64,000 nt of DNA from Escherichia coli. Lineage in GTDB: Bacteria > Pseudomonadota > Gammaproteobacteria > Enterobacterales > Enterobacteriaceae. Both the position numbers and the translations under genes were made by a program. This document shows positions 4,983-6,052 of the stretch, piece by piece (position 1 is the first letter of the stretch; each line of letters begins with the position of its first letter). A model generated the notes under the pieces. It was given only the letters and a program-made list of their open reading frames with translations, had not been told where the DNA came from and searched no databases. The stretch lies in NCBI RefSeq assembly GCF_036507355.1, contig NZ_AP027877.1; one strand, given 5' to 3'.

Positions 4983-6052
4983 GCTGAATTTACAATCCAA
5001 GTGCAACAAAAAAAGAAGTACTCATCAACTAGAATATAATTTTGTTTCCACACAAAAACCACTTCCAAATGATGAGTACTTCCTACCGACATCTTACAAT
5101 AAACGAGCGAGAAAAGATAATGATTTTACTCGCACAGGGCAAAAAACAAGCAGAAATTGCCAAAGCACTGGGACGTAGCTCCAGCACCATTTCTCGCGAG
5201 CTGAAACGACACGCTCTAGAAAGCTACAGTGCAACGAACGCACAAAACAGCTATTTGAAGCATCGTCAAAATAGCAAAGCACAGCGCAAATTAGAGCAGC
5301 CTGAATATTTCAATTTGGTGCAAGAAAAGTTTCTGACAGAAAACTGGTCGCCCGAACAAATCAGCGCACGATTAAAATTGGAAAAATCTGAATTATCCAT
5401 TAGTTATTCAACCATTTATCGTGGTATTTATTCAGGGTTGTTTGATATAGGCGAACGCAAAGCCAGTCGCAAACTGCGCCACAAAGGCAAAACACGGCAT
5501 ACAAAAAATCATCATGAAAAACGTGGCAAAATTCAGATATCCAACCATTTGAACGACCGTCCCATTTCGGCGCAAAATCGCAGTCGCTTTGGACATTGGG
5601 AAGCCGATACCGTACTGGGTAAAGCGGGTGGAGCTTGTTTGCTGACGCTGACGGAACGCAAAAGTCGTTTTGAGTTGGTGAAGAAAATTCCTGCCAAAAA
5701 AGCCGAAGCAGTCCAAAAAGCCATGATTGAATTGCTGGATTCACATATATTGCGGTCAATTACGCCAGACCGTGGTAAAGAATTTGCCCAACATCGTTTG
5801 GTAACAGAAGCACTGGGTGTAGAATTTTACTTCCCCGAGCCGCATCAACCGTGGACACGGGGAACGAATGAAAATACAAATGGGTTACTTCGTGAATACT
5901 TTCCGAAGCACCAAGACATCAATCAGTGGAGCGAAGTTGATATTCAACAGGTGATCAATAAACTGAATTTACGACCACGTAAATGTTTAGGTTGGAAAAC
6001 ACCTTATGAAGTTTACTTCAAAAAATCGTTGCACTTGGTTTGACAATTCAAG
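4983..6052 (+). mobile_element. IS30-family insertion sequence (about 1070 bp), ISApl1-like, low GC
   Basis: Terminal inverted repeats tgaatttacaatccaagtgcaac (4985-5007) and its inverted partner ending 6050 (20/23 match); AGAC direct repeat at both flanks; clearly AT-rich relative to surroundings. Confidence 0.8.
5069..6043 (+). CDS. IS30-family DDE transposase
   Basis: ORF with N-terminal HTH (AEIAKALGRSSSTISRELKR) and C-terminal DDE region (HWEADTV..., TPDRGKEF..., TNENTNGLLREYFPK) typical of IS30 transposases. Confidence 0.85.
   Translation: MMSTSYRHLTINEREKIMILLAQGKKQAEIAKALGRSSSTISRELKRHALESYSATNAQNSYLKHRQNSKAQRKLEQPEYFNLVQEKFLTENWSPEQISARLKLEKSELSISYSTIYRGIYSGLFDIGERKASRKLRHKGKTRHTKNHHEKRGKIQISNHLNDRPISAQNRSRFGHWEADTVLGKAGGACLLTLTERKSRFELVKKIPAKKAEAVQKAMIELLDSHILRSITPDRGKEFAQHRLVTEALGVEFYFPEPHQPWTRGTNENTNGLLREYFPKHQDINQWSEVDIQQVINKLNLRPRKCLGWKTPYEVYFKKSLHLV

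Follow-up and report, generated by a model that had tools for sequence, protein, structure and literature searches.

The segment at positions 4983-6052 of the window, the 64-kb stretch of Escherichia coli DNA that was analysed here, is almost certainly a single intact copy of ISApl1, the insertion sequence of the IS30 family that mobilises mcr-1; this copy transposed alone into a StfH/YfcO-family adhesin gene and is presumably active. The element is already known: it is an ordinary ISApl1 with behaviour as described, and only the location of the insertion sets it apart from other copies. The features of the interrupted locus are the following.

4983-6052, plus strand: complete ISApl1 insertion sequence of 1,070 bp, matching ISApl1 copies including that of NC_010942.1 at 100% identity over bases 1-1070
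4770-4982, plus strand: 5' part (71 codons) of the interrupted StfH/YfcO-family fimbrial adhesin gene, with DUF2544 and an orthologue annotated in locus L001 (strain OkiPb01695)
6055-6696, plus strand: 3' part (213 codons and stop) of the interrupted YfcO-family gene, from the restored frame and public alleles
4981-4982, no strand: left copy of the target-site duplication AC, with a single AC at the empty sites in L001 and in draft contigs L013 and L014
6053-6054, no strand: right copy of the target-site duplication AC, with a single AC at the empty sites and varying 2-bp duplications elsewhere
4983-5009, plus strand: left inverted repeat (IRL), 27 bp, with a -10-like TACAAT at 4991-4996 and six mismatches to IRR
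6026-6052, minus strand: right inverted repeat (IRR), 27 bp, with an outward-facing -35 TTGACA at 6040-6045 and six mismatches to IRL
5015-5082, plus strand: RNA hairpin inside ISApl1, an inverted repeat with a 13-bp perfect outer stem and a predicted fold of -22.4 kcal/mol
5069-6043, plus strand: IS30-family DDE transposase, 324 aa, with 309 bits to NF033563 and the Pfam domains HTH_38 and rve, identical to WP_012478345.1

By the convention of ISfinder, elements that share more than 95% identity are the same IS. ISApl1 copies matching positions 4983-6052 were found in 449 plasmid records, 403 of them with one match covering at least 80% of the element, and identity was 100% across bases 1-1070 in all 25 of the matches listed. 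A copy 100% identical over 1,070 bp lies on plasmid APP7_A (NC_010942.1) of Actinobacillus pleuropneumoniae AP76; ISApl1 was originally discovered in this species (PMC5404521). The name used here was assigned from the RefSeq annotation, the identity to the AP76 copy and the published description. An earlier note, made from the letters alone, had placed the bounds of the element at 4983-6052 (1,070 bp), assigned it to the IS30 family and likened it to ISApl1; the coordinates and full-length matches agree with these bounds, the profile score and the annotated transposase bear out the family and the likeness, and the best matches were to ISApl1 at 100% and not to an unrelated IS30-family element. 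The AT-rich composition and foreign origin that it had proposed are likewise in keeping with the GC content of the element (41.7%, against 52.1% in the rest of the window) and with the GC3 of the transposase gene (0.40), which was the lowest among 30 long ORFs (mean 0.58).

The single 324-aa ORF of the element is identical to the RefSeq protein annotated as 'IS30-like element ISApl1 family transposase' (WP_012478345.1), and its 309 bits against the NCBIfam IS30 model NF033563 compare with a cut-off of 80. Its architecture is that of the IS30 family: one transposase with an N-terminal helix-turn-helix (HTH_38, residues 5-48), a DDE core (rve, residues 174-261) and an acidic triad, D180, D234 and E268, in which 33 residues separate D234 from E268. 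The start codon was placed at ATG 5069 and not at the internal ATG 5120 because the HTH_38 match supports the former.

The window is chromosomal E. coli DNA that spans the region from fadJ, by way of sixA and the yfc operon, to nuo, and is collinear with the locus of strain OkiPb01695 (L001) except for three IS-related differences. The adhesin gene is the last of the yfc chaperone-usher fimbrial operon, and smrB lies downstream in convergent orientation. Upstream, window positions 3444-4667 stand in place of L001 2266-8687. Some 6.4 kb was replaced, about 4.8 kb of it native yfc sequence; most of the usher gene, the chaperone gene, two minor subunit genes and most of a third were lost to this deletion. 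An IS3-family element of 1,229 bp is found at 3440-4668, with orfA at 3497-3781, orfB at 3838-4650 and perfect 14-bp terminal repeats, TGAATCGCCACGGG, and without a target duplication. The right junction of this element is also present at the ends of draft contigs L013, L014, L016 and L017, and was seen in no complete genome. A further insertion of 1,277 bp (12203-13479), absent from OkiPb01695, occupies the yfcL-mnmC intergenic region. It encodes on the minus strand a protein of 326 aa (12308-13288) that matched the NCBIfam model 'IS110 family RNA-guided transposase' with 256 bits, and it looks like IS621, an element with a bridge-RNA recombinase; an Rfam scan of window positions 1-14000 returned nothing at gathering thresholds. 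The yfc or usher genes have been struck by IS elements in other strains too: the usher gene of OkiPb01695 is split by an IS91-family element (L001 4621-6018, NZ_AP042570.1), and strain EPSSH018 carries ISApl1 in a FimD/PapC usher gene.

The ISApl1 insertion splits the adhesin gene after codon 71. The earlier note had claimed that removal of the element restores a continuous frame, and this proved correct with one refinement: the frame, in which QVGNLD runs on into LISWNGPSS, returns only on removal of 1,072 bp, made up of the element and one AC. The resulting protein of 284 aa matched Pfam DUF2544 with an E-value of 5e-71, and an NCBIfam profile search with it gave no match. Its family assignment was taken from the Pfam match together with the RefSeq name of the orthologue in OkiPb01695 (L001 8790-9644), which is annotated as 'StfH/YfcO family fimbrial adhesin' and which reads GGCAATTTAGAC immediately before the insertion point and TTAATAAG immediately after it. 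The exact restored protein is encoded on 12 public contigs.

Two of these 12, the draft contigs L013 (GCA_905398585.1) and L014 (GCA_047852605.1), match the window once those 1,072 bp are taken out, L013 with 2 mismatches in 6,610 bp and L014 with 2 in 6,468 bp. Contig L013 starts 76 bp within the left IS3-family element (window 4592-4667) and reaches 71 bp into the right IS110-family element (12203-12273); contig L014 has 12 bp of the IS3-family element at its start and ends 7 bp short of the IS110-family insertion. The IS3-family junction is therefore common to the window and both contigs, and the IS110 junction is common to the window and L013; both contigs are without ISApl1. Since they share the neighbouring IS junctions, L013 and L014 represent near-isogenic empty sites, which indicates that the insertion is recent. 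When the element and its 300-bp flanks were used as a query, the junction of ISApl1 with the yfcO-family gene was found in none of 5,426 complete E. coli genomes (no match covering at least 80% of the query), and the ISApl1-free version of the locus, including the IS3-family junctions, likewise had no match of at least 80% coverage among complete E. coli genomes. The two ORFs that fuse YfcO to the element (89 and 94 aa) were both missing from a public gene index, a weak negative given that gene callers may choose other starts. The ISApl1 insertion is the latest of three IS events at the locus and specific to this strain. The recent and clean insertion proposed beforehand is upheld by the exact empty-site allele in near-isogenic assemblies, and interrupted alleles of this gene did not turn out to be common elsewhere. 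In E. coli this YfcO-family allele itself belongs to a minority: of the 5,426 genomes, 234 matched ISApl1, inclusion of the 300-bp flanks brought in only about 53 more, and for several of the best-matching complete genomes the alignment begins only past the yfcO-family gene.

The ends of the element fit the published description of ISApl1, which has 27-bp terminal inverted repeats with six mismatches (PMC5404521). Counted from the ends, the repeats at 4983-5009 and 6026-6052 have this length and this number of mismatches, and within them a core (4985-5007 and 6028-6050) matches at 20 of 23 positions, where 0.00 such cores are expected from shuffles of the window; imperfect terminal inverted repeats had been correctly recognized before. 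The TTGACA in IRR overlaps the transposase stop codon. Eleven other ISApl1 copies were used for comparison of the ends, namely nine single copies with a matching duplication (L003, L005-L010 and L012), two copies bracketing mcr-1 in L004, and one copy without a duplication in L011. All eleven are 1,070 bp long, start with GCTGAA and end with TTCAAG, and the duplications of the nine single copies differ from one another (GG, CC, GC, CG, GC, TC, AT, AC). In L011 (NZ_CP027118.1, 60722-61963) the dinucleotides beside ISApl1 are AT to the left and CT to the right, so that a 2-bp duplication is lacking, which suggests that the locus was rearranged later or that copies recombined.

The target of the insertion in the window, AATTTAG[AC]TTAATAA, has A or T at 13 of the 13 positions that have been reported as AT-biased for ISApl1. 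It is the sole site with this pattern in the interrupted gene, and 35 of 62,908 positions in the window (0.056%) show it. The site agrees with the published preference of ISApl1 for AT-rich DNA with a central G/C bias (PMC6349718, PMC5404521). The target also bears a loose likeness to the IRR end, agreeing at 12 of 15 positions when one gap is allowed. Choice of the target for its similarity to IRR was considered and rejected, as ungapped identity is 7 of 14 and the likeness is explained by the general AT-rich target consensus.

The sequence AGAC, which the earlier note had taken as the flanking repeat, does occur in the letters at either flank (4979-4982 and 6051-6054). It is present once at the empty sites of L001, L013 and L014, which read TTTAGAC followed by TTAATAAG with one AC. 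At this locus a 2-bp duplication and a 4-bp duplication look alike, and the sequence could be read as a 1,068-bp element whose duplication is the 4-bp AGAC, or as another member of the IS30 family. The other copies decide the matter: because they keep their ends and vary in their 2-bp flanks, AG (6051-6052) belongs to the element as its fixed terminus, which leaves AC as the duplication. All nine other single insertions with matching 2-bp flanks retain TTCAAG as their final bases, full-length matches to ISApl1 at 100% over 1-1070 occur in unrelated contexts, and the literature gives 2 bp for the target duplication of ISApl1 (PMC5821093, PMC5404521). The shorter element, or a different family member, is accordingly most improbable, and the 4-bp duplication was rejected on the ends and flanks of the nine single copies; of the claimed AGAC repeat, the AC stands as the duplication and the AG does not.

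The same evidence bears on how the element came to be in the gene. In Enterobacteriaceae ISApl1 is tightly linked to mcr-1, and loss of an IS copy from Tn6330 (ISApl1-mcr-1-pap2-ISApl1) is common (PMC5821093). Among the 5,426 complete E. coli genomes ISApl1 was found in 234, at 929 places, 634 of them chromosomal, with up to 41 per genome, and mcr-1 was found in 441, with 66 chromosomal places. A Tn6330 that once stood in the yfcO-family gene and later lost mcr-1 and one IS copy would leave a solitary ISApl1, but here one complete IS is directly flanked by a matching 2-bp duplication, excision of 1,072 bp recreates a natural allele exactly, and in published serial isolates ISApl1 was seen to move by itself, without mcr-1 (PMC5404521). 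Only one ISApl1 copy is present in the 64-kb window, where Tn6330 has two bracketing mcr-1 and pap2, and BLASTN and TBLASTN searches of the window with mcr-1 and pap2 from the Tn6330-like locus L004 gave no match. On that absence the origin from Tn6330 was rejected, and its probability is judged to be minimal. The earlier note had reported no resistance gene here and had pointed to flanking cargo such as mcr-1 as something to look for; for mcr-1 and pap2 in the window its statement holds. An assembly artefact, with a multi-copy IS misplaced in the yfcO-family gene, has in its favour that such elements are frequent sites of misassembly. Misassembly would not, however, produce a precise 2-bp duplication at a site with all 13 preferred target positions, nor would the gene then be restored exactly, base for base, across the junctions, and an artefact is therefore scarcely credible. 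The insertion is best read as transposition of ISApl1 alone.

Members of the IS30 family transpose by a copy-out-paste-in route via abutted ends (PMC5821093), and for ISApl1 IR-IR junctions have been demonstrated experimentally (PMC6349718). It inserts with 2-bp duplications, and a single copy moves without mcr-1 (PMC6349718, PMC5404521). In the proposed course of events, the DDE transposase would copy ISApl1 out and join its ends as an IRR-IRL junction with a 2-bp spacer; the element would then be pasted into an AT-rich target with a G/C-biased centre, where 2 bp would be duplicated, in this case the AC of AATTTAG[AC]TTAATAA. When the IRR-IRL junction was modelled with its 2-bp spacer, TTGACA and TACAAT came to lie 17 bp apart, a near-consensus promoter geometry. 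The abutted ends of ISApl1 would thus form a junction promoter, a statement based on the sequence and on general knowledge of the IS30 family; a literature search for ISApl1 together with a junction promoter found nothing.

Between IRL and the transposase gene lies a hairpin (5015-5082) whose fold of -22.4 kcal/mol corresponds to z = -7.1 and was equalled by 0 of 200 shuffles. Its outer stem pairs the AUGAUG start region (5069-5074) with an upstream segment and encloses a TATAAT at 5035-5040. The hairpin would form only in transcripts that start upstream of 5015, and it would reduce translation of transcripts that read in from the flanking DNA. Protection against read-through is known in other IS elements, and the start-codon hairpin of ISApl1 resembles it.

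A hybrid promoter-like site was noted at 4969-4996, where a -35-like TTGGCA in the flank is followed by a 16-bp spacer and the -10 TACAAT of IRL (10 of 12 positions). This site was the best in the promoter scan and is directed into the transposase gene, and a comparable flank hexamer was present in none of the other ISApl1 copies compared. The pair TTGGCA/TACAAT imitates the IRR-IRL junction promoter. It is conceivable, although unlikely, that this hybrid promoter fires and escapes the start-codon hairpin, which would make the present copy an unusually active ISApl1 donor driving further spread of the IS in the strain or, given a Tn6330 there, mobilisation of mcr-1.

The biological significance of the insertion is small, as this is a textbook solo insertion of ISApl1 into an operon that was already inactivated. 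Because the operon was already defunct upstream and smrB is convergent downstream, the insertion is probably phenotypically neutral. Its practical value is epidemiological. ISApl1 comes from the Pasteurellaceae and in E. coli travels with mcr-1 plasmids, so a chromosomal copy flags the strain for a check for mcr-1 and colistin resistance elsewhere in the genome. The insertion also marks the lineage precisely; ISApl1 is absent from this position in near-isogenic assemblies.

Compared with known systems, the copy in the window differs from other ISApl1 copies by location only, its insertion in the YfcO-family gene having no counterpart in the complete E. coli genomes and its fusion ORFs none in the gene index. 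Tn6330 is built with the same IS, and in L004, for instance, mcr-1.1 and pap2 lie between two copies of ISApl1; in contrast, the window has one copy with its own duplication and neither mcr-1 nor pap2. Experiments indicate that a single ISApl1 copy does not mobilise mcr-1 (PMC6349718, PMC5404521). The arrangement in L004 (positions 4501-9250, K. pneumoniae pKP2509-MCR) itself differs from the canonical, directly repeated Tn6330: the second ISApl1, which follows mcr-1 and pap2, has the opposite orientation to the upstream one, with its IRR end overlapping the annotated 3' end of pap2. With IS30 of E. coli, the founder of the family, ISApl1 has in common the transposase family (NF033563), the DD(33)E spacing and the 2-bp duplication. 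The junction and family properties of IS30 reportedly go back to work by Olasz, Kiss and Dalrymple. IS30 is 1,221 bp long and encodes a transposase of 383 aa with an extra N-terminal helix-turn-helix. Transposition via an IR-IR junction with a 2-bp spacer is a shared property of the family (PMC5821093, PMC6349718). In the family this junction carries a promoter. ISApl1, at 1,070 bp and 324 aa, is shorter than IS30; its GC content is about 42%, and the two are different elements and not isoforms.
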